Origin: an uncultured Candidatus Micrarchaeota archaeon
GTDB taxonomy: Archaea > Micrarchaeota > Micrarchaeia > Burarchaeales > Fermentimicrarchaeaceae
DNA length: 64,000 nucleotides
Reading direction: 5' to 3'
Assembly (NCBI GenBank): GCA_963760615.1
Contig: CAVXDX010000012.1
Span: 3,338 to 67,337 of the forward strand
Shown here: positions 3 to 29,716 of the stretch, in pieces
Position numbering within the stretch: the stretch's first letter is position 1
How the letters are laid out: the number at the start of each line of letters is the position of its first letter
Program-made: the position numbers and the translations under genes
The notes under the pieces: generated by a model
What the model was told of the DNA's origin: nothing
Database searches by the model: none
The model's input: only the letters and a program-made list of their open reading frames with translations

Positions 3-857
3 GTGGCAACAATACTGACAACCGCGCTTGGGAGCAGTATACCGATTATAATTGCACCGGCGATGCACCTATCCATAAGCGACAACCCTGTTGTGAGGGG
101 GAACATCAGAAAGCTGAAAGCTCTTGGCGTGGAGTTCGTTGAGCCTGCAGTGAGCGAAGGAAAGGCGAAGATGGCCGACACAAACAGCATAGTTGCGCTT
201 GCCATGAGGATGCTGTATAAAAAAGACCTGGCTGGGAAGAGAGTTCTTGTCACCACCGGTGCCACGCGTGAGTATATTGATGACGTGCGTTTCATCTCCA
301 ACCCAAGCAGCGGGAGGATGGGGGTGGAGCTTGCGAGAGAGGCATATCTGAGGGGTGCGGATGTGCTTCTGCTCTATGCACATGTGGATGTGGAGCTGCC
401 GCCTTGCATAAAAAGCAAGCACGCTGAGACGACGGAGGATATGCACCATGAAGTACTGGCAAACCTCAGAGGGAGCGACATCGTAGTTCTCGCAGCAGCC
501 CCAGCAGATTTTGCTCCGAGGAGGAAGAGGGGCAAGATTTCCTCCACGGCAGCGCTGAAGCTTACGCTACACCCCGTACCTAAGATAAGCGACGCAATAA
601 AGAGAGCCAAGAAGTTTGCGAAACTTATTCTATTCAAGGCAGAGAGTCATGTGAAGGAGTCTGAGCTGAAGAGGATTGCGCTGAAGAAGCTCAGGGCATG
701 CGATGCGGATATGATAGTTGCAAACGACGTTGGGAAGCCTGGCGTTGGATTTGTGTCTGATTTCAACGAGGTCCTGCTGATAAAGCCTGATGGTTCGGTT
801 AAAAAGGAGAAGGGGAAGAAATCAGAGATAGCAAAGCTGGTTTTTGATTCTCTTTAA
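3..857 (+). CDS. coaBC: Phosphopantothenoylcysteine decarboxylase / phosphopantothenate-cysteine ligase (CoaBC), 5' end truncated by the window edge
   Basis: The CoaB ligase region carries the motif [25 protein letters not shown]. It is preceded by the end of a CoaC-like flavoprotein domain. Confidence 0.8.
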
Positions 858-15415: not shown

Positions 15416-16272
15416 TCACCCACCTGCAGAGGTTTTTTTAATTTTTTCCTAAGCGGATAGGGAACTTTCAGCCCGTAGCGCTCAATCTTTGGATTTGAGA
15501 GCACGCTCTTCGTAGGACCATCAAGCTCTATCCTGCCACCCTTCACAACCACAACTCTTTCTGCATTATTCAGCAGCATCTCCGTGTCATGCTCAACCAC
15601 AATTATCGTCCTCCCCATCCTGCTTAGGTTTCTCAGCATCCTATAAAGCTCATTAGCACTGCCAAAATCAAGGTTTGAGGAGGGTTCATCCAGCAGTATT
15701 ATCTCAGGCTCCATGGCAAGGGTTGAAGCAACGGTGAGCTTCTGCTTCTGGCCTTCTGATAGGTTGTTCGGGTTCTGGTCCTTCATAGACTCCAGCCCGA
15801 AGAGCCTGAGGTATTTCATAACCCTGGTCTCTATCTCTTCCTTGGGGAGCCTTCTGTTCTCAAGGGCAAATGCAACCTCGTCCCACAGCTTCAGCGAGAA
15901 TATCTGCGAGTTGGGGTCCTGCAGAACTATCCCTATGCCTTTTGAAAGCTCGCTCACGCTGGTTTTTCTGGTATCCCTGCCGCGCACGAGTACCTCACCC
16001 TCAAACTTTCCTTCTATGAGGTGCGGTATGACGCCGTTCATCGTGAAGAGCAGGGTGCTCTTGCCGCTTCCCACAGGCCCTATCACCCCAACAAATTCGC
16101 CCTTGCCAATTGAGAGGTTTAGATTCGACAGGACTTTCTTTTCCCCGTAGGAGAAGCTGAGGTTGCTTATCTGTATAAGCTCTACCATTTCATGTACCTC
16201 TCGATGAACCCAAACCTGAATGCCAGGGTCCATGCTACTGCAACTTCCATGAACCCCTGAAATGCATTCCAC
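15412..16272 (-). CDS. ecfA: ECF transporter ATPase (A) component, ABC ATPase; likely start MVELIQISNL near 16188
   Basis: Walker A GPVGSGKST, LSEGQKQK signature and ILLDEPSSNLD Walker B are all present. Confidence 0.85.
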   Translation of the reverse strand: MECISGVHGSCSSMDPGIQVWVHREVHEMVELIQISNLSFSYGEKKVLSNLNLSIGKGEFVGVIGPVGSGKSTLLFTMNGVIPHLIEGKFEGEVLVRGRDTRKTSVSELSKGIGIVLQDPNSQIFSLKLWDEVAFALENRRLPKEEIETRVMKYLRLFGLESMKDQNPNNLSEGQKQKLTVASTLAMEPEIILLDEPSSNLDFGSANELYRMLRNLSRMGRTIIVVEHDTEMLLNNAERVVVVKGGRIELDGPTKSVLSNPKIERYGLKVPYPLRKKLKKPLQVGE

Positions 16273-17140: not shown

Positions 17141-17617
17141 ATGGGTATGAAAGGACAAAGCGGGGTAGAATACCTGACAATGTATGCCATGGCATTCATG
17201 ATTCTGCTAGTTGTCCTCGCAGGAATTTATTATGTGATGGTGTATTCCACTCCAGTAACTTCTCACTGTGATTTCCCACTGGATTTGCAATGCACTGACT
17301 ATTATATTAATTCTACGGGTAACCTCACCCTAATTATAAAGCAGGAAACGGGCCACCCCATAACAATAACCCAGTTCAACTGCACCAGCAATGACAACCT
17401 CGCTGGGATTACCTCGCCACTGCCAAACCCCGTGAATATCAACAGTGGCATGCAGGATTATTTGTCGAATGGAACCCCCTGCTACAGGCCAAACGGCGAT
17501 GTCGCAAAGGGACGCGTGGGCAGTTACTACACCGGAAAGCTTTTTGTTAAGTACAACGAGACAGACACTGGTTTTGTTCACGTGCTGACGGGAAACATAG
17601 TTGTTAAATATGAATAA
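17141..17617 (+). CDS. Archaeal type IV pilin-like protein (class III signal peptide)
   Basis: The N-terminus MGMKGQSGVEYLTMYAMAFMILLVVLAGIYYV gives a charged residue, Gly, then a hydrophobic helix (prepilin peptidase-type signal). The extracellular beta domain is shared with the neighbouring gene. Confidence 0.6.
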   Translation: MGMKGQSGVEYLTMYAMAFMILLVVLAGIYYVMVYSTPVTSHCDFPLDLQCTDYYINSTGNLTLIIKQETGHPITITQFNCTSNDNLAGITSPLPNPVNINSGMQDYLSNGTPCYRPNGDVAKGRVGSYYTGKLFVKYNETDTGFVHVLTGNIVVKYE

Positions 17618-17645
17618 ATTTATAAAGAGTCCTATGACAAATAGA

Positions 17646-18173
17646 ATGGTGAAGCGGATGAGAAAGGCACAGGCTGCAATGGAATACCTCATAACATATG
17701 GGTGGGCGGTGCTGGTAATGCTGATTGTTGTTGGAGTTCTCTTCTATCTAGGGATATTCAGCCCCCATACAATAATGACATGCACCTTCCAGAATCCGGG
17801 TTTCAGCTGCGCTGCATACAAGCTGACTTCGAATAGTGGGGGTGAAGGCGGCATCATACTTGACCTAGGCCAGTCTACTGGGCGTGACATAAAGGTTGTC
17901 GGTTTCAACTGCACAACCGCCAGCAGCTTCACAGTAATTGATTTTAATGGAGTGACTGCAAACAATGTGACCGTTCCCACTGGAGGTCATGCGCCCCTTA
18001 ATGGGACTGCTGCAGCCATGAAACCCCTTCCATGCTACAAGAACGATGGCAGTATGCTGGGAACTGCGGATGCAGGGAGTTATTACAAAGGGAAGCTCTA
18101 CATCCATTACTGGGATTTGGAGACCAACCTTGACCACAAGGTTACGGGCGACATAGCCGGAACCGTGGAATGA
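17646..18173 (+). CDS. Archaeal type IV pilin-like protein (class III signal peptide)
   Basis: MVKRMRKAQAAMEYLITYGWAVLVMLIVVGVLFYL is the classic KAQxAxEYLxTYGWAxL class III signal. The track ORF starts at 17601 but the signal begins at internal Met 17646. Confidence 0.65.
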   Translation: MVKRMRKAQAAMEYLITYGWAVLVMLIVVGVLFYLGIFSPHTIMTCTFQNPGFSCAAYKLTSNSGGEGGIILDLGQSTGRDIKVVGFNCTTASSFTVIDFNGVTANNVTVPTGGHAPLNGTAAAMKPLPCYKNDGSMLGTADAGSYYKGKLYIHYWDLETNLDHKVTGDIAGTVE

Positions 18174-18201: not shown

Positions 18202-18834
18202 ATGCTGAAATCCAGCTTTTCGGAATTCTGCAACAGAGTAAGCATAAGGCTCGGAATGGTATTCTCAAAGATTCCCATTTCTGCCAATGCCTGGACTATA
18301 CTCTCGCTCCTTCCGGCAGTTGTGGGGTTTGCATTTCTCGTGCAGAGGCAGATGGAGAATGCGCTCGTTCTCTTCGCAATCTCAGCCATCTTGGATGCGG
18401 TAGACGGGGGCGTTGCCCGAGTCACGGGAACGGTTAGCAACCTTGGAGCCTATCTTGATGGCATGATGGACAGAGCAGTTGAGGGGCTCCTCTTGATAGG
18501 GATAATGCTTCACGGGATACCTGACTTGGTTATTTGGGGCTACACAACTCCCGCATTCCTGTGGATTGCGCTCCTGCTGTTTTTTGGTTCTGCCATGGTG
18601 AGCTATTCAAGAGCATACGCAGTTTACAGAAGAGTCCTGAGGGATGATAAGAAAATCTCGAAAATGCCAGGTGTCATGGAGAGGGCTGAAAGGCTCATCC
18701 TTGTGTTTCTCGGCATGCTGCTCTATCCCTTCAACCCGCTCTATCTGACTTGCGCAATAGCTCTCGCTGCTGTGCTTTCGATTGTGACGGTTATGCAGAG
18801 GATGCTTTACACCATAGGAAAGGCGGAGTACTGA
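18202..18834 (+). CDS. CDP-alcohol phosphatidyltransferase family lipid synthase
   Basis: DAVDGGVARVTGTVSNLGAYLDGMMDR matches the DG(x)2AR...G(x)3D(x)3D signature. Polytopic membrane protein. Confidence 0.8.
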   Translation: MLKSSFSEFCNRVSIRLGMVFSKIPISANAWTILSLLPAVVGFAFLVQRQMENALVLFAISAILDAVDGGVARVTGTVSNLGAYLDGMMDRAVEGLLLIGIMLHGIPDLVIWGYTTPAFLWIALLLFFGSAMVSYSRAYAVYRRVLRDDKKISKMPGVMERAERLILVFLGMLLYPFNPLYLTCAIALAAVLSIVTVMQRMLYTIGKAEY

Positions 18835-18838
18835 TTCA

Positions 18839-19486
18839 ATGAAGGTGGACATGCACATCCACACCGTATACTCCGGGGATGCCACATGCAAGCCTTCTGG
18901 AGTTATGGAAGCGGCAAGAAGGAGGGGTCTTGACGGCATTGCTGTGACAGACCACAATACGACTAAAGCATGGAAAGAAACGCTTGCAGAGGGCAGAAAA
19001 CATAGCATAGCAGTAATCCTCGGGGAAGAAATTTTAGTGGAATATAAGGGAAGACAAGTGGGAGAAGTGCTGGGCTATTTCATGAATGAGGAGATAAAAA
19101 GGGGGGATGTATACGAAGTGCTGGATGCAATTGCAAGCCAGGGGGCGCTGGCTGCTCTTTCCCATCCATTCTGCTTCTGGAGGGGCTTGAGGATGGATGC
19201 AGCTGAGTTAGTTGACAAAATTCAGGCAGTTGAGGTTTTCAACTCCAAGATGTATTTTAATTACCACAACCGCAAGGCGCTTGAGTTTGCAAGAAAGCAC
19301 AAACTTGCCGAAGTTGGAGGCAGTGATGCGCATAGCGAGCATGAAGTTGGCGATGCATATACCCTTGCAGAAGCAAGCAGTATAAAGGAATTCAGGAGGG
19401 CAATGGAGAAAAGGAAAACAAAGGCTGAAGGAAATATTTCAGGCTACCTTCCTAGGTTATTTTCAAAGCTTGCTAGTTTGGGATAA
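18839..19486 (+). CDS. PHP-family metal-dependent phosphoesterase
   Basis: MKVDMHIHTVYSGDA...GIAVTDHNT shows the PHP His motifs. Confidence 0.75.
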   Translation: MKVDMHIHTVYSGDATCKPSGVMEAARRRGLDGIAVTDHNTTKAWKETLAEGRKHSIAVILGEEILVEYKGRQVGEVLGYFMNEEIKRGDVYEVLDAIASQGALAALSHPFCFWRGLRMDAAELVDKIQAVEVFNSKMYFNYHNRKALEFARKHKLAEVGGSDAHSEHEVGDAYTLAEASSIKEFRRAMEKRKTKAEGNISGYLPRLFSKLASLG

Positions 19487-22024
19487 TCAGCCTCCTTTCT
19501 TTATAATTGATTTACCTCTTGGTGTGAGTTTGTAGAACACCCACTTCCTACCATCAACTTCTATTTTCTCGACAAGGTCCGCCTCCCGCAGCTTGTCAAG
19601 ATGCTCCACTATTGTTGCTTTGCTCTTGTTGAGCTTTGAGCTTATGTCCGTCGGAGTCCTCTCCCCCTCAAGAAGAGTATTCAGAATCTCCATTCTCGTC
19701 CCTGATGATAGCGCGCGGTACACATCTGCATCACCAGGCTCCTTCTGGGCTGGGGCTCTCCTCAGCATACTCAGGACGACGAAAATGGTAAAAAGAACAA
19801 GAACTACTGCCACTGGTACTATTAAGTTTGAATTCGAAGGCTCGGTTCCAGTTGCTGGAGGTGACTGCTGGTTTGCGTTCTGAGGGGGTGTCTGACCGGT
19901 TGATGCGGGGGTGATTCTTACGACACCTCCCGCATTGCATAACAGCGCATTATCCCCAACAGAGAGGTAGTTTGCAGTTTTTTCATCGCTTATCAGGCTC
20001 AGGTATTCCTGCGAGCCGAACTGAACATTCCTCGTTGGCTCCATGCCATTGCATCCTGTGTCCTCCCATATGCCGCCGACAGAGACGAATGTTTTGTCAC
20101 CGATAACCTTTGTTTCCGGAGCCTGGGAAGTCTGCTCTGCCATGCTGCTTGTTGCCTTGTATGCATTTGCCACTCCGTAGGAACCACCAGCAACAGTTGC
20201 TGCCATTGGAGCTATATCCATATTTCTTCTTATCTCATTCCCCTCTGGTGATTTCACAAGGTAGGATGTGTAAGGGGTAGGTATTCCATATTTTACGGCA
20301 AGTTCAGTAACCTGCTGCTTGAGTTCTGGAGTCTCCCCATCCAGAGTTATCTGGTCAAGCAGATAGCCAACCTTCCTCAGAGCCCATGTTCTCTCCACGA
20401 AACTGTTTGATGAAGTCTGAGGGAAGCTTACATCGTACTTCAGCTCCTTCTGCACCCCACCTACGGAACCTTTCAGCCTGACAGTTGCGTCTCCATAGCC
20501 GCTGTATCTGCCAGCAACTACCAACTGTGTTCCAAGGAATATGTCCGGTATCCTCTTTGGGAGGAGATCATATGTCGAAACTGCACCTTCCACGCCAACG
20601 CATGCTGTGCTACCCATCTCGCATACTACCGGAGCTGAGGAGGGGGTTATGGTGAGCCGCACATCTGAAAGCACCGGAGTTGAAACTCTGTCATAGAAAG
20701 ACTTGAGTGTCATCTCCAAATCCGCTTCATTCTTTATGTATGTGGCTATTCCATCCCCGAATTCGTTTGAAAGCTTGTCGAGAAGCTCAAAATCTACGTC
20801 TTCGCCTACTCCAAACACGAAGAGTTTGAAATTCTTTCCACTTCCGTCTGCGCTGCCAGTCAGGGCCTTTAGTATATCTGTATTGGAGTGCCCCGTGGTG
20901 TCCCTGCCATCTGTGAGTATTATGACTAGGTGCATCCTGCTGTCGTTCTGGAACCATGCGATGGATTGCGCAAGAGGATCCTGTAGGTCTGTTGCGCCTT
21001 CCGCGGACATACCATCGACGAAATTCTTTGCGCCCTGGACTGAGCTTACACTCTGCAGGGTATCCGCATACCTCTTTGTAGTGCTTGAGAATGAGATTAT
21101 GTTGAACCTATCCTCTCCGTTCAGCCTGTCCAGCCCGTACTTGAGAGCACTTTTCACCTGGTCAAGCTTGGTGCCCTCCATGCTTCCGGAGGTGTCAATA
21201 ACGAAAACGACATCCTTCGGAATTGTTGTCTGGTTGACAATGGAGGGGTATATGAAAAGCAGGAAGTAGCCGCTCTCGTTGCTTTTTTGAGCCAGCAGCT
21301 TCACATCGTAATCCCTATTGCTTACACCATAGTAAAGCTGGAAGTCCTTATCCGGCAGTACTTTCTCCTCGTAGTAGGATACGACTGCCTTGCCGGTCTC
21401 TCCTCGCTGCACCGTTATGTTGTGCGTCGGCGAGTATATGAAACCCAAAGTGCCAGGTGCGTTTATGTTTATTGTTATATTCACCGGGTCTATAGGCTTT
21501 GTTGAATACCTCTCAGGGCTTAGGGGGTACATGTAGGTGTATAGCCCTGCGCTGGATGAGATTATCTGTTCGTAGGTTATCACGACCTTGACTGTTTTTC
21601 CTCTTGGGAGCACAATGCTTGAGGAGAAGGCATCCCTTCCGACATACTCCAAGAGAGATGCATCCCTCCTCTCAAGGACATACTGCTGGTAGGTTTTCTT
21701 TGCTTCCTCGCTTCCAAGAAGTGTTCCCTCAAGGGTTTTGCCATCAACTATAAGCTTGACATCCCTCACACCGCCTCCTGGGACTGGGAACATGTATACT
21801 CCTTCCAAATCCCTGTAACCGTCATTCCTGAACTCCTGCTCCACTCTTGTACGGGCGTACGTGTCATTTATTGTTACTGTAACATAGTGATTCAGTATGA
21901 GGGGGTACTGGTCCTCATGATGGATGGGTATGATCACTCCATCTGAATGAACGAAGCCTAGCAATAAGAAAAGCATCAGAATTGCAAACTTTGTCTTCAT
22001 TATATCACCAAGATAGTTAGGCAA
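19487..22024 (-). CDS. Signal peptide + VIT + von Willebrand A extracellular region, single TM helix, C-terminal cytoplasmic ArsR-like winged HTH
   Basis: Sec signal MKTKFAILMLFLLLGFVHS. VIT-like N-domain. vWA MIDAS motif DTSGSM...T...D. TM LIVPVAVVLVLFTIFVVLSMLRR. The wHTH is YRALSSGTRMEILNTLLEGERTPTDISSKLNKSKATIVEHLDKLREADLV. Confidence 0.6.
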   Translation of the reverse strand: MPNYLGDIMKTKFAILMLFLLLGFVHSDGVIIPIHHEDQYPLILNHYVTVTINDTYARTRVEQEFRNDGYRDLEGVYMFPVPGGGVRDVKLIVDGKTLEGTLLGSEEAKKTYQQYVLERRDASLLEYVGRDAFSSSIVLPRGKTVKVVITYEQIISSSAGLYTYMYPLSPERYSTKPIDPVNITININAPGTLGFIYSPTHNITVQRGETGKAVVSYYEEKVLPDKDFQLYYGVSNRDYDVKLLAQKSNESGYFLLFIYPSIVNQTTIPKDVVFVIDTSGSMEGTKLDQVKSALKYGLDRLNGEDRFNIISFSSTTKRYADTLQSVSSVQGAKNFVDGMSAEGATDLQDPLAQSIAWFQNDSRMHLVIILTDGRDTTGHSNTDILKALTGSADGSGKNFKLFVFGVGEDVDFELLDKLSNEFGDGIATYIKNEADLEMTLKSFYDRVSTPVLSDVRLTITPSSAPVVCEMGSTACVGVEGAVSTYDLLPKRIPDIFLGTQLVVAGRYSGYGDATVRLKGSVGGVQKELKYDVSFPQTSSNSFVERTWALRKVGYLLDQITLDGETPELKQQVTELAVKYGIPTPYTSYLVKSPEGNEIRRNMDIAPMAATVAGGSYGVANAYKATSSMAEQTSQAPETKVIGDKTFVSVGGIWEDTGCNGMEPTRNVQFGSQEYLSLISDEKTANYLSVGDNALLCNAGGVVRITPASTGQTPPQNANQQSPPATGTEPSNSNLIVPVAVVLVLFTIFVVLSMLRRAPAQKEPGDADVYRALSSGTRMEILNTLLEGERTPTDISSKLNKSKATIVEHLDKLREADLVEKIEVDGRKWVFYKLTPRGKSIIKKGG

Positions 22025-22130
22025 TGAGGATATTTATAGCCTATTCGTTTTTGTTAGGCGCTTGCCGAACAATTCCCTTACACCTCGTCAATGCGCCTAT
22101 TGAAAGCAAAAACGGTAATGTTAAATAGAA

Positions 22131-23684
22131 TTGCAGTGCAAATGTTCTCCGCAAGAGGAGGTTGAATTGGAAGGCGGTTATTTCAGGTATGACAAGCTGC
22201 AGCCCAGAGAATACCAGCTCAGGATAGCTGAGAACGTTCTGAAAAAGGGCAATTCCCTAGTCATACTGCCAACCGGGCTGGGAAAAACCGCAATAGCACT
22301 GCTCGTTGCTGATAAATATCTCCAGCAGGGTAAGAGAGTGCTCTTCCTCGCACCAACAAGACCCCTGTGCGAGCAGCACAGGAAGAGCTTTGAGGAGCTT
22401 ATGAAGCTCCCGAGTGAGGACATTCTGCTTATAACTGGCAAATTTGGGGCGGGGGAGAGGGAGGATTTGTGGAATACTGCAAAGGTTATTGTCGCAACCC
22501 CGCAGTGCGTGAAGAATGACTTGAAAAAAGGCAAAATGAAACTGGAATTCGGACTTGTTGTGCTTGACGAGGTGCACAGGGCAGTTGGCAATTATGCGTA
22601 TACTTTCGTTGCAGAGGAGTGCAGGAAAGTTGGGCTTCACCTGCTCGGTCTGACTGCATCACCTGGAAGCTCCAAGGAGAAGATTGAGGAGATGAGCAGC
22701 CTTCTTGGAGTTAAGAATATAGAGATACGGGATGAGGCTGATGAAGATGTGAAGGAGTATGTCCAGCCTCTTGACATCCACTGGGAGACCGTTGATTTTC
22801 CAGCTGAGATGGATGAGGTGAGAAAGCTTCTGGAAGATGCAATGGAGGATAGGCTGGAGGTGATGAGGAAGTTCGGGTGGATAAATGCCAAGAGCTTCCG
22901 CTCCCTGGGGAAGAAGGTGCTCCTGCTGGCCAGGAGCAAAATTGAGAGGACTTCAGGAGGAGTAAAGTATATGGGTCTGTCGCAGTATGCCGCGCTGATG
23001 AATCTCACTCACGCGCACGAGCTGCTTGAGACTGAGGGCGCTTCAACTTTCCTGGAGTTTTTCAAGAGAATGGAAGCCCGCGAGCAGAAGAGCAGGGCGG
23101 TTGTCAGAATATTGAAGGATTACAGGGTTGTGCAGGCTTTGGAGAAGGCTAGGCAGCTGAAGATTGACCACCCGAAGCTGGACAAGCTGCGCCAGCTCAT
23201 AGAGGGGAGGAAGGACAGGATATACATAATTTTCGTGCAATTCAGGGACCAGGTTAAGAAAGTGGTTGAGGAGCTAAACAAGATACCTGGAGTGAAGGCT
23301 GAGAGGTTTGTTGGAAAGCGTGATGGTGTAACACAGGAGGAGCAGAAGGATACTATAGAGAGGTTCAGGAACAGGGAGTTCAACATACTTGTGGCAAGCT
23401 CTATAGGGGAGGAAGGGTTGGATATACCTGCCGTGGACTGCGTCATCTTCTACGAGCCAATACCGAGCGAGATAAGGAACATCCAGAGAAGAGGCAGGGC
23501 CGGGAGGACCAGAGCCGGGGAAGTGATAATACTCATAACAAAGGACACGCGGGATGAGGCGTACTACTGGGTTTCAAGAAGCAGGGAGAGGAAGATGAAG
23601 AGGATAGTAAAGGGAATGCAGAACAGGTTCGGAGGAGAAGTTAAAAAAGTAAAGGGGCAGAGCAGGCTATCTGACTTCGGCTGA
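22131..23684 (+). CDS. Hef/FANCM-type superfamily 2 helicase (helicase module only); likely start TTG 22167 after SD GAGGAGGT
   Basis: Motif I LPTGLGKT, motif II DEVH, motifs V/VI (...QRRGRAGR), and an insertion domain between the RecA lobes. No ERCC4 nuclease domain is present. Confidence 0.7.
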   Translation: MQCKCSPQEEVELEGGYFRYDKLQPREYQLRIAENVLKKGNSLVILPTGLGKTAIALLVADKYLQQGKRVLFLAPTRPLCEQHRKSFEELMKLPSEDILLITGKFGAGEREDLWNTAKVIVATPQCVKNDLKKGKMKLEFGLVVLDEVHRAVGNYAYTFVAEECRKVGLHLLGLTASPGSSKEKIEEMSSLLGVKNIEIRDEADEDVKEYVQPLDIHWETVDFPAEMDEVRKLLEDAMEDRLEVMRKFGWINAKSFRSLGKKVLLLARSKIERTSGGVKYMGLSQYAALMNLTHAHELLETEGASTFLEFFKRMEAREQKSRAVVRILKDYRVVQALEKARQLKIDHPKLDKLRQLIEGRKDRIYIIFVQFRDQVKKVVEELNKIPGVKAERFVGKRDGVTQEEQKDTIERFRNREFNILVASSIGEEGLDIPAVDCVIFYEPIPSEIRNIQRRGRAGRTRAGEVIILITKDTRDEAYYWVSRSRERKMKRIVKGMQNRFGGEVKKVKGQSRLSDFG

Positions 23685-23693
23685 GTTCAGGTA

Positions 23694-23996
23694 CTAAAAA
23701 CTGATTTTCACTCCTAAGAGCATTAGGAGGAGTATAGTTGCCAGTCCCGGAAGACCGAATAATGCCACAGGCACTATGGTTGGCCATATGGGGATAGCTT
23801 GTAGGGATTGGATGTGCAAAGATGTCCCTATTATATTGAGTAGGAAGAGGCATACAACCCCCACTATGGAGTTGAGTATGATTGTTAGGAGCCACTTGAA
23901 TCCCACTCTTGCCAGCTTGAAGAAAAGCACTATCCCAATTACTAAAAAGAATATGAATACCAATGAAGTGCAGATTAACGCAATGTCAAATGCCAT
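23694..23996 (-). CDS. Small membrane protein (about 100 aa, 3 TM)
   Basis: Hydrophobic ORF with no motif recognised. Confidence 0.3.
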   Translation of the reverse strand: MAFDIALICTSLVFIFFLVIGIVLFFKLARVGFKWLLTIILNSIVGVVCLFLLNIIGTSLHIQSLQAIPIWPTIVPVALFGLPGLATILLLMLLGVKISF

Positions 23997-28034: not shown

Positions 28035-28481
28035 TTGGATGTTCTTTTAGATACAAATGTCTACCTGGCGCATATAAAAGGTGAAATGCAGGGCTCTCAT
28101 GCAAAAATTATACTGGAAAGGGTGGCAGCAGGGGAGCTTGCCCTTTGCTACAACGGCATAATCCGGATGGAAATAGAGAGAAAGTATGGGTATTACCTAG
28201 AACCGTTTTGCGCCATACTCGAAGAGCTGAGAAAATTAGGCAGAGTTGTGGATGTTGAAATCACAAATGAGATGAGTGAAAAGGCAATACAACTCGATAG
28301 GAAGCTGATAAAATACAGAAGAGGAAAGGAAGAAAGATTCGGAAAGATTGATTGCTTGCTGATACTTCTTGCAAAGAAACATGGATGCATGCTTGTGACT
28401 ATTGAGAAAGAATTAATTGAAGCCGCAAGAGAAGAGGGAGTCAAGGCAGTCAGTCCAATGGATCTAGCGATGAGTTTCTAG
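28035..28481 (+). CDS. PIN-domain (VapC-like) nuclease, TTG start
   Basis: LLDTNVYL N-terminal acidic motif and further conserved acidic positions in a 148-aa PIN-sized protein. Confidence 0.6.
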   Translation: MDVLLDTNVYLAHIKGEMQGSHAKIILERVAAGELALCYNGIIRMEIERKYGYYLEPFCAILEELRKLGRVVDVEITNEMSEKAIQLDRKLIKYRRGKEERFGKIDCLLILLAKKHGCMLVTIEKELIEAAREEGVKAVSPMDLAMSF

Positions 28482-28793
28482 GTTCGCTTCCTTTATGAGC
28501 ATGCCCAGAGCTTTACGTTCATTGTTATCCGCCCTCTTTAGAAAATCTTTCCACAACGATTTTCTGGCTGCCCTTCCTAGTTTTGCTGCGCTCTTTGCTC
28601 TATCTCGTTTAACACTCCCGAAAGTCTCCTCAATAATCTTTAATGCCCTTTGTCTTAAAAGTTCAGTCTTTCCTAATTTACTCATATCTTTTACGGCCTC
28701 ACTTCTAGAGGTATAGTATCCTTCTTTAACCAGAATATCTATCTCCTCAACGTCTTTTACTGCATACCGAACTGGTACGACAATGGATTTCAT
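28464..28793 (-). CDS. Ribbon-helix-helix (CopG/VapB-like) DNA-binding protein
   Basis: MKSIVVPVRYAVKDVEEIDILVKEGYYTSRSEAVKDM is the RHH beta-strand plus EEID...SRSEA helix pattern. Convergent with the PIN gene and overlapping it by 18 nt. Confidence 0.5.
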   Translation of the reverse strand: MKSIVVPVRYAVKDVEEIDILVKEGYYTSRSEAVKDMSKLGKTELLRQRALKIIEETFGSVKRDRAKSAAKLGRAARKSLWKDFLKRADNNERKALGMLIKEANLETHR

Positions 28794-28895
28794 TGTATAC
28801 TAAAGCGTATACAGTATTTAAAAGCTTTTGCTGTTCGTATTAAGCCGAATTGTTATTTCATCAAGATTGATAGAATGACCAAGAGGGACGGGGGA

Positions 28896-28913: not shown

Positions 28914-28932
28914 AGCAGGCTTAAATATCGGG

Positions 28933-28946
28933 AAAGGCATAATTTA
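28933..28946 (+). promoter_or_regulatory. Conserved promoter-proximal 14-mer aaaggcataattta (copy 3)
   Basis: Identical 14-mer. TATA gcttaaatat about 28918-28927. ATG at 28951. Confidence 0.55.
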
Positions 28947-28950
28947 AGGC

Positions 28951-29118
28951 ATGACAGAGGCAAAAAAGCCGGCTGCCAGCATGAGAAAAGATATAGAGCG
29001 GCAGCAGGAGAAGATGAGGGAGCTGTTCGACGAGCTCAAAGAAACCGTGAGCAAACCCAAATGGGATGAGAAGCCGAAGGGGTTCTTCACCGCGCTTGAG
29101 AAAAAGCTCGGCAACTAA
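28951..29118 (+). CDS. Small hypothetical protein (55 aa), not in the supplied ORF track
   Basis: Read directly from the + strand: MTEAKKPAASMRKDIERQQEKMRELFDELKETVSKPKWDEKPKGFFTALEKKLGN. Preceded by the conserved aaaggcataattta 14-mer and TATA. Confidence 0.4.
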   Translation: MTEAKKPAASMRKDIERQQEKMRELFDELKETVSKPKWDEKPKGFFTALEKKLGN

Positions 29119-29716
29119 CCTTAAGGCAACGGATATAATACACTTTGTCACGGCGGGTGAATCAAAATGTAACATTATACTGACTTCAGATGATGACTTT
29201 ATTTCAGAAGGTACAAGATTTCTAAAGATGAAAAAAGAAGATGACAAGCTAAAGTTCTGTAAGCCTATCGAAAAGAATGTGCTAGATGCAGTTGATAATC
29301 TCACTAAAAAAGTTCCTTAAAGTATATAGATTTTTGTGTATAATATAGCATCCGTGAATCACTCGAAACCGTCCGGTTTTGCCAGAAAAAGCAAAAAAAG
29401 CGGTAAAATCCGGCAGAACAGGCAGTATCTCTCCAACTTCTTCAAAAATCCTGAAAAGCCAGCCTAGACCGGAGAAGCCGGCTCAGGCGTAAGCCTCTTC
29501 CGGCTGCGCCAAAGCGCAGCAAGTGTTAGTTTGACCGTTTCACGATGAAGAGAAAAAGCAGGTGAAACGGTAACCGATGCTGCTCAGACGTAAGCATATT
29601 CCGAACTGCCTACCGTTTCGACCGATTCTACAGACGTGTTTTATACCCTAGCAGAAATTTGAAAAAAAGCAGAAAGCTTACGCTATACTCGCAGTCAATG
29701 ACTACTGCCCACCTCC

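Follow-up and report, generated by a model that had tools for sequence, protein, structure and literature searches.

DNA-binding regulators that act from the membrane are known in bacteria, where ToxR, TcpP and CadC use oligomerisation as the signal (PMC7888679, PMC6320335, PMC11856585), and in archaea, with the membrane-bound one-component activators ArnR and ArnR1 of Sulfolobus acidocaldarius (Lassak et al., 2013, and Bischof et al., 2019, both cited in PMC13286277). The gene studied here lies in a 64,000-nucleotide stretch of Micrarchaeota DNA that was analysed as a whole (the window), and its product had been predicted from the sequence to join extracellular VIT and vWA domains, through one transmembrane (TM) helix, to a cytoplasmic ArsR-like winged helix (wHTH). 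Members of the ArsR/SmtB family typically bind, as homodimers, to an inverted-repeat operator in their own promoter, and ITIH1, a VIT-VWA protein, has been described as integrin-like. DPANN archaea have tiny genomes and few regulators, and their lifestyle is thought to depend on surface contacts; to our knowledge, almost nothing is known of their signal transduction.

The open reading frame on the minus strand (19487..22024) spans 845 aa, the length originally predicted, which we corrected to 837 aa. The ATG at 22000, giving the N-terminus MKTKFAIL..., is also the start of an identical database protein (P0001, 837 aa) and has a GGTGAT element ahead of it; the upstream TTG at 22024 was rejected because it lies only ~7 nt past the conserved TATA box, so that ATG 22000 is almost certainly the true start (Table 1). 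Pfam searches with the 845-aa frame recovered VIT (45-151, E 1e-22), VWA (271-437, E 1e-17) and HTH_5 (PF01022; 776-820, E 8.4e-13, 48.4 bits for a cut-off of 22), and a hydropathy scan detected exactly two hydrophobic segments, the N-terminal signal and one TM helix, in agreement with the domain order of the original prediction. Its "long beta-rich region" did not hold as one unit and was resolved into an ITIH-like fold, a small domain and a disordered stalk.

Table 1. Features of the gene, its predicted product and its promoter (positions in the window; residues in 837-aa numbering).
Feature	Residues	Positions	Strand	Basis
Whole gene, 837-aa VIT-VWA-TM-ArsR(wHTH) protein		19487..22000	-	stop codon 19487-19489; ATG 21998-22000
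Candidate operator, inverted repeat TTGTTCGG-CAAGCG-CCTAACAA		22051..22072	-	comparative promoter alignment
Purine-rich BRE-like stretch AAACGAATAGGC and TATA box TATAAATA (22031-22038)		22031..22050	-	conserved in relatives
GGTGAT, Shine-Dalgarno-like element		22004..22009	-	3 nt before ATG; first base 7 nt from ATG
Predicted Sec-type signal peptide (MKTK / FAILMLFLLLGFV / HS, then DG)	1-19	21944..22000	-	hydropathy
VIT domain	37-143	21572-21892	-	Pfam
ITIH-like ectodomain core	43-590	20231..21874	-	ITIH4 E 5e-44; ITIH1 Foldseek E 5e-33
VWA domain	263-429	20714-21214	-	Pfam; complete MIDAS
Small conserved juxtamembrane ectodomain	629-697	19910..20116	-	alignment
P/T/S/Q-rich disordered stalk	698-725	19826..19909	-	pLDDT <50; pairwise identity 19%
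Single TM helix, then RR	726-746	19763..19825	-	hydropathy
Short variable cytoplasmic linker, ~10 aa	747-758	19727..19762	-	model and identity profile
Cytoplasmic ArsR/SmtB-type winged helix	759-837	19490..19726	-	Pfam, Foldseek, alignment

In the hydropathy scan, the h-region of the signal was AILMLFLLLGFV, followed by VHS and the cleavage site, after which D-G is almost invariant in the homolog alignment. The DTSGSM motif of the intact MIDAS noted in the original prediction was present, and all five MIDAS positions (D269, S271, S273, T337 and D364) were invariant in 40 aligned homologs. The small domain at residues 629-697 has six invariant residues (K636, F638, W645, D647, S663, Y666) as well as C650 and C688, and was found too in non-fused bacterial and archaeal VIT-VWA homologs. 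The score against TIGR03788 was 252 bits, well below the cut-off of 551.65. A sortase or archaeosortase sorting signal at the C-terminal TM helix was rejected, as the helix is followed by a folded 91-residue tail and not by a short basic one. K and R are absent from the 15 residues preceding the TM helix (LIVPVAVVLVLFTIFVVLS), RR comes immediately after it, and every fused homolog combines this N-out, C-in charge pattern with a signal peptide and a single TM helix. A predicted N-out, C-in, type I topology follows from the signal peptide, the one TM helix and the charge distribution, with the winged helix on the cytoplasmic side, as the original prediction had assumed; it holds in all fused homologs.

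The tail comprises helices at 767-776 and 783-790, a recognition helix at 794-806 (KSKATIVEHLDKL), a wing at 810-825 and alpha5 at 827-835, its most invariant residues being those of the recognition helix and the wing. Its structural model (pLDDT 83; H16-24, H27-36, H43-50, H54-66, E70-74, E81-85, H87-95) matched CzrA, HlyU, SqrR, SmtB, NolR and BigR in Foldseek with TM-scores of 0.72-0.79 and rmsd of 1.5-2.2 A over ~85 residues, alpha5 included. As modelled, the tail has the alpha1-alpha2-alpha3-alphaR-beta1-beta2-alpha5 order of a full ArsR/SmtB fold and is more than a minimal winged helix; its ArsR-like nature, claimed originally, is backed by both the sequence profile (HTH_5) and the predicted fold, the narrower NCBIfam model HTH_metalloreg scoring 47.9, below its cut-off of 55. 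All orthologs inspected have no Cys and a single His in the tail, the latter in the recognition helix. A metal-sensing ArsR protein was ruled out, as the tail has neither the alpha3N Cys pair nor the alpha5 His/Asp/Glu cluster, and since the classical metal and thiol sites of ArsR are missing, either the membrane or the ectodomain must supply the input.

A continuous VWA + HTH_5 fusion was recovered in 35 protein clusters (P0001-P0035, 45-100% identity) from independent assemblies, covering several Micrarchaeota orders and including Ca. Gugararchaeum and the complete genome of Ca. Fermentimicrarchaeum limneticum Sv326. The search for the same fusion in related genomes, suggested with the original prediction, was therefore positive, and these clusters together with 8 genome loci with a continuous ORF rule out a frameshift, a mis-assembly or a fusion artefact. 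Among orthologs below 60% overall identity, the winged helix was the best-conserved region, with a mean pairwise identity of 63% versus 60 for VIT, 54 for VWA, 27 for the TM helix and 18 for the linker. At only 27%, the TM helix does not point to any specific mechanism for signalling across the membrane. The VIT-VWA version of the receptor is restricted to Micrarchaeota. The architecture had been called unusual; this calls for a qualification, as the protein belongs to a wider DPANN class in which the TM-wHTH tail is shared and the ectodomains differ. This class is apparently undescribed; literature searches for the architecture and for membrane-bound regulators in DPANN retrieved nothing relevant.

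The promoter of the gene contains a 22-bp candidate operator (TTGTTCGGCAAGCGCCTAACAA), centred ~27 nt upstream of the TATA centre, at ~-53 and just upstream of the BRE. The consensus, T(T/C)GTTCGG-N6-CC(G/T)AACAA, has an 8-N6-8 layout. In 15 of the 16 readable ortholog promoters, TTGTTCGG-N6-CC(G/T)AACAA abuts the BRE/TATA, the palindrome preceding the TATA box by 9-12 nt in orthologs down to 46% identity, and in the remaining one (L028) both arms correspond to the symmetric variant ATTCGG...CCGAAT. The operator arms are invariant among close relatives while the spacer varies; in some lineages the TATA-proximal arm is degenerate (CCTAAC, CCTAGC, CCGAAT). The genes upstream vary among the ortholog loci (Hef-like helicase, CDP-OH_P_transf, ParA-like, glycosyltransferase, histone or unknown). 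Co-variation between recognition helix and operator was discarded as evidence, the two suggestive cases being too few and inconsistent: KDKSTVHEH goes with GTTGGG in P0174, and KNAST/KSSPT with ATTCGG/CCGAAT or CCTAGC variants in the P0030-32 group.

When metagenomes were scanned with nothing but the DNA motif (TYGTTCGG-N6-CCGAACAAAA), 80 loci totalling 561 kb were retrieved. The tail HMM recognised 30 ORFs at these loci with E<=1, 27 of them with E<=1e-5; all 30 were located at most 200 nt from the motif and none elsewhere in the 561 kb. The motif-adjacent wHTH genes belong to at least four unrelated groups, one of which has an N-terminal winged helix with 1-2 TM helices (E ~1e-22) and the same palindrome-BRE-TATA layout; groups C and D were weaker (E ~1e-6) and consist of general ArsR-family proteins, not members of the subfamily of the tail. 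The ArsR-type winged helix was the sole feature common to motif-adjacent genes across archaeal and bacterial groups. Given the own-promoter palindrome in all lineages examined and this DNA-only search, sequence-specific DNA binding and autoregulation of the window gene are the most economical reading.

Relatives with other ectodomains carry similar sites. The operator is TGGTTCGG-N6-CCGAACAA in Iainarchaeum P0131 and a symmetric variant, TTGTTGGG-N6-CCCAACAA, in Gugararchaeum P0174; in P0140 and P0156, a pair of CCGAAC half-sites lies at a distance of 11 bp from each other. With only the tail as query, a word-indexed protein search gave a single match (P0121), and an exhaustive representative search was needed. 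A TM helix is predicted on the membrane side of the winged helix in ~140 of the best 150 relatives (74/78 of those with an N-terminal and 64/65 of those with a C-terminal winged helix). This wHTH subtype is, as a rule, predicted to be tethered to the membrane. Pfam assigned no family to 64 other ectodomains of the class, apart from one CarboxypepD_reg match.

Topology, ArsR fold and the cognate-looking operator in the own promoter support the original reading of a membrane-tethered one-component transcription factor. We estimate at about 0.62 the probability that the window protein acts as a type-I membrane-tethered, autoregulating factor of this kind. It would be exported via Sec and kept anchored by its single C-terminal TM helix, with an integrin/ITIH-like VIT-VWA head, bearing an intact metal-ion-dependent adhesion site, outside on a flexible stalk, and the ArsR/SmtB domain kept within ~10 residues of the inner membrane face. 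Comparative genomics suggests that this domain binds the inverted repeat in its own promoter, most likely as a dimer, and thereby autoregulates the gene; ligand binding to the ectodomain, or its clustering, might change how the two tails dimerise or are oriented and so alter operator occupancy.

With a linker of ~10 residues, which pins the ArsR domain to the membrane, tethered action needs promoter DNA to be brought to the membrane, and this favours a proteolytic release. According to this alternative, which we consider unlikely, the protein would be an inactive membrane-held precursor, and ligand binding or ectodomain shedding would trigger an intramembrane or juxtamembrane cleavage freeing the ArsR domain for the operator, much as with Notch, SREBP or anti-sigma factors. 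In nearly all orthologs, the outer end of the TM helix carries a Pro, often followed by a Gly, and a gene for a BofA-like membrane protein lies 1.7 kb away (23694-23996); BofA of Bacillus regulates an intramembrane protease. However, the BofA-like gene is linked, in syntenic position, in the close group only, no protease gene is conserved beside the receptor in distant orthologs, and the TM helix and linker, the least conserved parts of the protein, contain no conserved cleavage motif. Moreover, bacterial factors of the ToxR/CadC type show that DNA can be bound from the tethered state (PMC7888679, PMC6320335).

The operator was found once in the 64-kb window, even at 3 mismatches, and once per ortholog locus; the only further operator-like sites in the window were weak 2-mismatch ones at 15910 (in a gene), 28833 (intergenic) and 31735, which are unconvincing. 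This single site does not point to a regulon reaching further than the gene, and a pure feedback function would fit as well as signalling. It would also suit a self-limiting adhesin, in which the VIT-VWA head is structural or adhesive and the tail only feeds back on synthesis of the protein, neither sensing the environment nor acting on other targets. Autorepression is the classical mode of action of ArsR proteins, and non-fused homologs such as P0039 of Altiarchaeota, with a bare C-terminal TM anchor, indicate that the ectodomain works without the signalling tail. We nevertheless regard this explanation as distinctly improbable: the same tail occurs on many unrelated ectodomains and small extracellular loops, a pattern typical of modular sensors, and the position just upstream of the BRE is atypical for a repressor, being more typical of archaeal activators.

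A paralogous or soluble ArsR protein, and not the window protein, might occupy the operator. That the palindrome is the site of another regulator (a soluble ArsR or PadR paralog), the winged helix serving in protein-protein contact or non-specific nucleoid-membrane tethering, is very improbable: four ortholog loci have PadR genes within a few kb, and paralogous receptors of the same genome, with near-identical recognition helices, could cross-bind, but PadR is absent near the window gene and at several loci, the ArsR-type winged helix alone accompanies the motif across groups, its recognition helix and wing are the most invariant part of the tail, and two Gugararchaeum paralogs bear distinct, symmetrically changed operators.

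The gene neighbourhood was considered as a clue to a regulon. Synteny among close relatives is complete and therefore uninformative; in distant orthologs, only CDP-OH_P_transf (with inositol genes, PHP and the Hef-like helicase) stays nearby. The PHP/CDP-OH_P_transf genes are convergent with the receptor gene. No operator was found at CDP-OH_P_transf itself, and a terminator scan of the convergent gene junction found none. DPANN receptors with the same TM-wHTH tail and operator but unrelated ectodomains are often located beside CDP-alcohol phosphatidyltransferase/inositol genes. We tentatively advance, as a rather doubtful extension, that DPANN archaea may possess modular type-I receptors, spanning Micrarchaeota, Iainarchaeota and relatives, in which ectodomains are swapped on a TM-linker-ArsR chassis with a GTTCGG-N6-CCGAAC operator; the VIT-VWA member would be an integrin-like contact sensor turning surface-ligand binding straight into transcription from the membrane and, as its lasting position beside PHP/CDP-alcohol phosphatidyltransferase/inositol-phosphate genes suggests, coupling surface contact to membrane head-group remodelling. 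If true, an integrin-like adhesion module would be linked to a promoter in one protein, the shortest conceivable outside-in route. The analysis supplies a defined 22-bp candidate operator and a soluble domain of ~90 residues, offers a functional annotation for hundreds of database proteins labelled "VIT/VWA domain-containing" or "hypothetical", and, with a swappable-ectodomain chassis, would place natural receptor variants at hand, possibly as a scaffold for engineered sensors.

Compared with known systems, the ITIH1/ITIH4 and TIGR03788 proteins share with the window protein the VIT, the VWA/MIDAS and the following beta/helical region (~550 residues aligned), but ITIH1/ITIH4 are secreted, the marine proteobacterial TIGR03788 proteins end in a sortase signal, and none has a cytoplasmic DNA-binding domain. 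Notch, too, is a type-I receptor that acts on transcription through its intracellular C-terminal part; however, Notch, SREBP and ATF6 need regulated proteolysis and nuclear transport and have no homology to the window protein. The ArsR/SmtB repressors (CzrA, SmtB, HlyU, SqrR, BigR, NolR) have the same fold, including alpha1 and alpha5, but are soluble dimers with metal or thiol sites, whereas the domain is here attached to a TM helix and a 700-aa ectodomain. ArnR and ArnR1 are also archaeal membrane-anchored HTH factors binding upstream of a promoter, but ArnR has an N-terminal HTH, two C-terminal TM helices and no large ectodomain, the opposite order to that of the window protein. The NCBIfam ArnR model NF041016 gave E 0.052 and 12.9 bits for a cut-off of 400, and ArnR is closer to the relatives with an N-terminal winged helix (P0121, group A) than to the window protein. 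Like ToxR, TcpP and CadC, the window protein combines in one polypeptide an extracytoplasmic domain, one TM helix and a cytoplasmic winged helix. In contrast to their N-terminal cytoplasmic DNA-binding domain and type II orientation, it has a signal peptide, an N-terminal ectodomain and a C-terminal DNA-binding domain; their winged helix is of the OmpR/PhoB type, whereas that of the window protein is of the ArsR/SmtB type with no Trans_reg_C match, its linker is much shorter, and its host is an archaeon with a TATA/BRE promoter. The principle is known from ToxR and ArnR; on the best reading, the window protein adds a new form of it that, if true, would mirror the ToxR/CadC design of bacteria.

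The fusion of a VIT-VWA ectodomain to a winged helix, the core of the original prediction, is real and under selection, and it recurs in related genomes. VWA and HTH_5 were both present in 35/35 of the best protein clusters (P0001-P0035, down to 45% identity), whose named members belong to Candidatus Micrarchaeota/Micrarchaeia and Ca. Gugararchaeum. In a genome scan, the fused gene turned up in eight genomes of Micrarchaeota, among them the complete Ca. Fermentimicrarchaeum limneticum Sv326 genome; matches from bacteria were limited to the ectodomain. The HTH was absent from P0036 onward (Altiarchaeota, Chloroflexota, Planctomycetota, others), and the Altiarchaeota homolog P0039 stops after a bare TM anchor. 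Conservation among the orthologs with less than 60% overall identity was highest in the wHTH (63%), followed by VIT (60%) and VWA (54%), with 18-27% for the TM helix, linker and stalk. The closest non-fused homologs, P0036 and P0037 (43% identity), are VIT-VWA proteins devoid of TM helix and wHTH, with an insertion of about 100 residues after the ITIH-like core and a short amphipathic C-terminal segment (...LLDAILDFFRGLFNFQ).

An open reading frame of 845 aa does exist when read from TTG. We nevertheless adopted the 837-aa numbering from the ATG at 22000, which is the start of the 100% identical database copy P0001 and is preceded by GGTGAT; the conserved TATA box lies only ~7 nt ahead of the TTG, making it very unlikely that this codon is within the transcript. 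Pfam recovered the expected VIT and VWA domains and a C-terminal ArsR-type domain (see the table), in agreement with NCBIfam, in which the ectodomain was akin to the "marine proteobacterial sortase target" family with a score far under the cut-off. All five MIDAS residues were invariant in 40 homologs. The "long beta-rich region" stood only in part: an ITIH-like core, alignable with human ITIH4 (E 5e-44) and ITIH1, extends to residue 590, and what follows is a separate linker, a small domain and a disordered stalk. The full-length AlphaFold model (mean pLDDT 73) had ITIH1 as its top structural match (Foldseek E 5e-33).

Features of the window, of the encoded protein and of operator loci
Feature	Position or loci	Strand	Details
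Pilin-like gene 1	17141-17617	+	N-terminus ...GQSGVEYL...
Pilin-like gene 2	17601-18173	+	N-terminus ...AQAAMEYL...
CDP-alcohol phosphatidyltransferase gene	18202-18834
Conserved adjacency regions	18202-19486; 22131-23684
Receptor gene, ATG start	19487-22000	-	837 aa
Receptor ORF, TTG start	19487-22024	-	845 aa
TATA box	22031-22038
Candidate operator	22051-22072		T(T/C)GTTCGG-N6-CC(G/T)AACAA
BofA-like gene	23694-23996	-	100-aa membrane protein; Pfam BofA E 4e-8, over cut-off
Ribbon-helix-helix-like gene	28464-28793	-
Weak operator-like site	28833-28850		GTTCGTATTAAGCCGAAT; 2 mismatches; intergenic
Unannotated ORF	28921-29304	-	127 aa
VIT	45-151 (845-aa numbering)		Pfam E 1e-22
VWA	271-437 (845-aa numbering)		Pfam E 1e-17
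HTH_5	776-820 (845-aa numbering)		Pfam E 8e-13, 48 bits (cut-off 22)
ITIH-alignable region	43-590
Linker	directly after ITIH-like core		low confidence in model
Small domain	629-697		conserved in non-fused homologs too
Stalk	698-725		disordered
TM helix	727-746		from model
Linker	between TM helix and winged helix		10 residues; low confidence in model
Winged helix	C-terminal, after 10-residue linker		pLDDT 76-90 in full-length model
Operator arms	L008, L009		TTGTTCGG...CCGAACAA
Operator arms	L001, L002, L027		TCGTTCGG...CCGAACAA
Operator arms	L026		TAGTTCGG...CCGAACAA
Operator arms	L029		TTGTTCGG...CCGAACGA
Operator arms	L028		ATTCGG/CCGAAT
Operator arms	L031		GTTCGG/CCGAAT
Operator arms	L030		GTTCGG/CCTAGC
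Motif-adjacent group A	8 loci, GC 26-36%		N-terminal wHTH, 1-2 predicted TM helices (two in 7/8 loci); E ~1e-22
Motif-adjacent group B	1 locus		168-aa wHTH, two TM helices
Motif-adjacent group C	2 loci, GC 64%		soluble
Motif-adjacent group D	L039, L045, L046, L051, L053, L062, L069, L071, L079, L082, L089, L099, L103, L106, L107, L112		16 near-identical loci, E<=1e-5; soluble ArsR-like protein, 228-229 aa in 15/16, 123 aa in L039

The hydropathy scan showed hydrophobic segments at exactly two places: the foreseen N-terminal signal and the foreseen single TM helix, which is followed immediately by RR and preceded by 15 residues lacking K/R. A cleaved signal peptide with a single TM helix implies an N-out, C-in topology, leaving a cytoplasmic tail of 88-102 residues in all fused homologs. 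The assignment of this tail to the ArsR-like winged helices held: it matched ArsR-family PDB entries by sequence (E 2.5e-5), and its isolated model (pLDDT 83) superposed on CzrA, HlyU, SqrR, SmtB, NolR and BigR (TM-score 0.72-0.79, rmsd 1.5-2.2 A over ~85 residues), including the alpha5 helix, which is part of the dimer interface in the ArsR/SmtB family. The tail contains no Cys and a single His, thus the classical metal/thiol sites are absent. From the sequence, we predict an exported protein anchored by a single TM pass, which would hold an ITIH-like MIDAS head outside the cell and an ArsR fold inside.

The upstream alignment of close relatives comprised a TATA box and a purine-rich BRE-like stretch abutting TTGTTCGG-N6-CCTAACAA, with invariant arms and a variable spacer. 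This inverted repeat recurs in distant orthologs, 9-12 nt ahead of the TATA box, despite a different upstream gene each time (Hef-like helicase, CDP-OH_P_transf, ParA-like, glycosyltransferase, histone or unknown). ArsR proteins are usually repressors. The operator is centred ~27 nt before the middle of the TATA box (~-53), a position resembling sites of archaeal activators such as EarA, whose site is upstream of the promoter (summarised in PMC13286277). We found a single operator match in the window, even with three mismatches allowed, and one per ortholog locus, which would also fit a less probable alternative, pure feedback control of an adhesin. A weak operator-like site between a ribbon-helix-helix-like gene and an unannotated ORF may be due to chance.

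Comparative genomics supports specific recognition of the own-promoter palindrome by the tail, and hence autoregulation, probably by a dimer; together with the predicted topology and ArsR fold, this agrees with the proposed membrane-tethered one-component transcription factor. Ligand binding or clustering of the ectodomains would then control the pairing of the tails. The tail could alternatively be released by proteolysis, as the short linker and the BofA-like gene would allow, but we found neither a conserved protease nor a cleavage motif. Sensing of host contact, attractive for DPANN, is speculative, as a host-independent life has been argued to be possible for the orders with this gene (PMC8561730).

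Using nothing but the DNA pattern (TYGTTCGG-N6-CCGAACAAAA), we scanned a metagenome collection, obtained at least 80 loci (561 kb), and ran an HMM built from the tails on the ORFs of the 80 listed loci. It recovered 30 ORFs at E<=1 (27 at E<=1e-5), all 30 located less than 200 nt from the motif and none elsewhere in these loci. They formed at least four unrelated groups (A-D), completed by three weaker ORFs (L067, L076, L033). Group A had an identical promoter layout, palindrome-AAACAAAT-TATA. In group D, probably of bacterial source (GC ~50%, many assemblies), TTGTTCGG-N6-CCGAACAA stands 20 nt ahead of the start codon of the ArsR-like protein (MMTKRYFSESAPD...). Groups C and D were only general ArsR relatives by the tail HMM (E ~1e-6); the recognition-helix signature [AS]-T-x-x-E-H-[LV] was present in group D and not in group C (QNVHHHL). 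Binding of the palindrome by a different protein is the weakest alternative, the ArsR-type wHTH being the sole feature common to the window gene and all motif-adjacent genes. The most economical explanation is that this wHTH lineage has the palindrome as its cognate site, with autoregulation of the genes concerned. The soluble group D protein with the same palindrome suggests that the operator/recognition-helix pair is older than the tethered forms.

The 97-aa tail, searched exhaustively, retrieved 1678 representatives at E<1e-3 (282 at E<1e-10). Among the best 150, the wHTH was at the extreme C-terminus in 65, directly preceded by a TM helix in 64 of them and accompanied by an N-terminal hydrophobic segment, as in the window protein, in 54; it was N-terminal in 78, followed by at least one predicted TM helix in 74 (1-2 in 71), and about 10 of the 150 lacked a predicted TM helix. 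In the C-terminal class, the ectodomains matched no Pfam family except for one CarboxypepD_reg hit, and the named members are Micrarchaeota, Ca. Iainarchaeum and Ca. Gugararchaeum, the last having a paralog of 433 aa (P0174) alongside its VIT-VWA member (P0033). For the receptors P0140 and P0131, similarity to the window protein is limited to the TM helix and the tail (43-46% identity over 112-139 aa). The P0131 promoter carries TGGTTCGG-N6-CCGAACAA, that of P0174 a symmetric variant, TTGTTGGG-N6-CCCAACAA, and those of P0140 and P0156 two CCGAAC half-sites 11 bp apart adjoining the TATA box. In Ca. Gugararchaeum adminiculabundum, the operators of two paralogs differ symmetrically in both arms (GTTGGG/CCCAAC at L153 2926-2947 versus GTTCGG/CCGAAC at L001 7938-7959), as do their recognition helices (KDKSTVHEH versus KSKSTVVEH), which may insulate them from each other. 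The top-scoring tail relative, the metagenome protein P0122 (1135 aa), had 17 separate wHTH matches in an apparent tandem array.

The whole neighbourhood is common to close relatives and therefore uninformative. In distant lineages, the one persistent neighbour was a CDP-alcohol phosphatidyltransferase gene, frequently accompanied by inositol-1-phosphate synthase or inositol monophosphatase, PHP phosphoesterase and Hef-like helicase genes. It was found in the window, in five other loci (L001, L002, L009, L026, L029) and beside receptors with other ectodomains (P0140 in L032, P0131 in L154, P0156 in L155), across Micrarchaeota orders and Ca. Iainarchaeum. This hints at a link in function with the synthesis of inositol-lipid head groups; we detected no operator at the CDP-OH_P_transf, inositol or PHP neighbour genes. 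The Iainarchaeum locus L154 has the window order (divergent helicase, receptor, convergent PHP and CDP-OH_P_transf) with a different, 200-aa ectodomain, suggesting that the TM-wHTH gene has long been at this locus and that its ectodomains were exchanged. In the window and most close relatives, 0-2 nt or a small overlap separates the stop codons of the receptor and the convergent PHP/CDP-OH genes (11 nt overlap in L154), so that the transcript 3' ends probably overlap. The BofA-like gene is syntenic in close relatives only, with two copies in L007; in Bacillus, BofA controls the intramembrane protease for pro-sigma-K processing. Two adjacent small proteins without Pfam family, whose N-termini resemble the class III (type IV pilin-like) signal peptides of archaea, are encoded immediately upstream of CDP-OH_P_transf, in a constant order among all close relatives.

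In our searches of open-access papers and preprints, neither type-I receptors with an ArsR domain at the C-terminus nor the DPANN tail class and its operator were described. The window protein belongs to the ITIH-like VIT-VWA family and, by its tail, to the ArsR/SmtB fold family, although without the sensing sites of the latter. The bacterial ToxR/CadC/TcpP transmembrane regulators and the archaeal ArnR/ArnR1 are alike in function but differ from it in wHTH family, domain order and orientation. We regard the window protein as a variant of the membrane-integrated one-component transcription factors that is real, conserved and open to testing, and new by the open-access literature.
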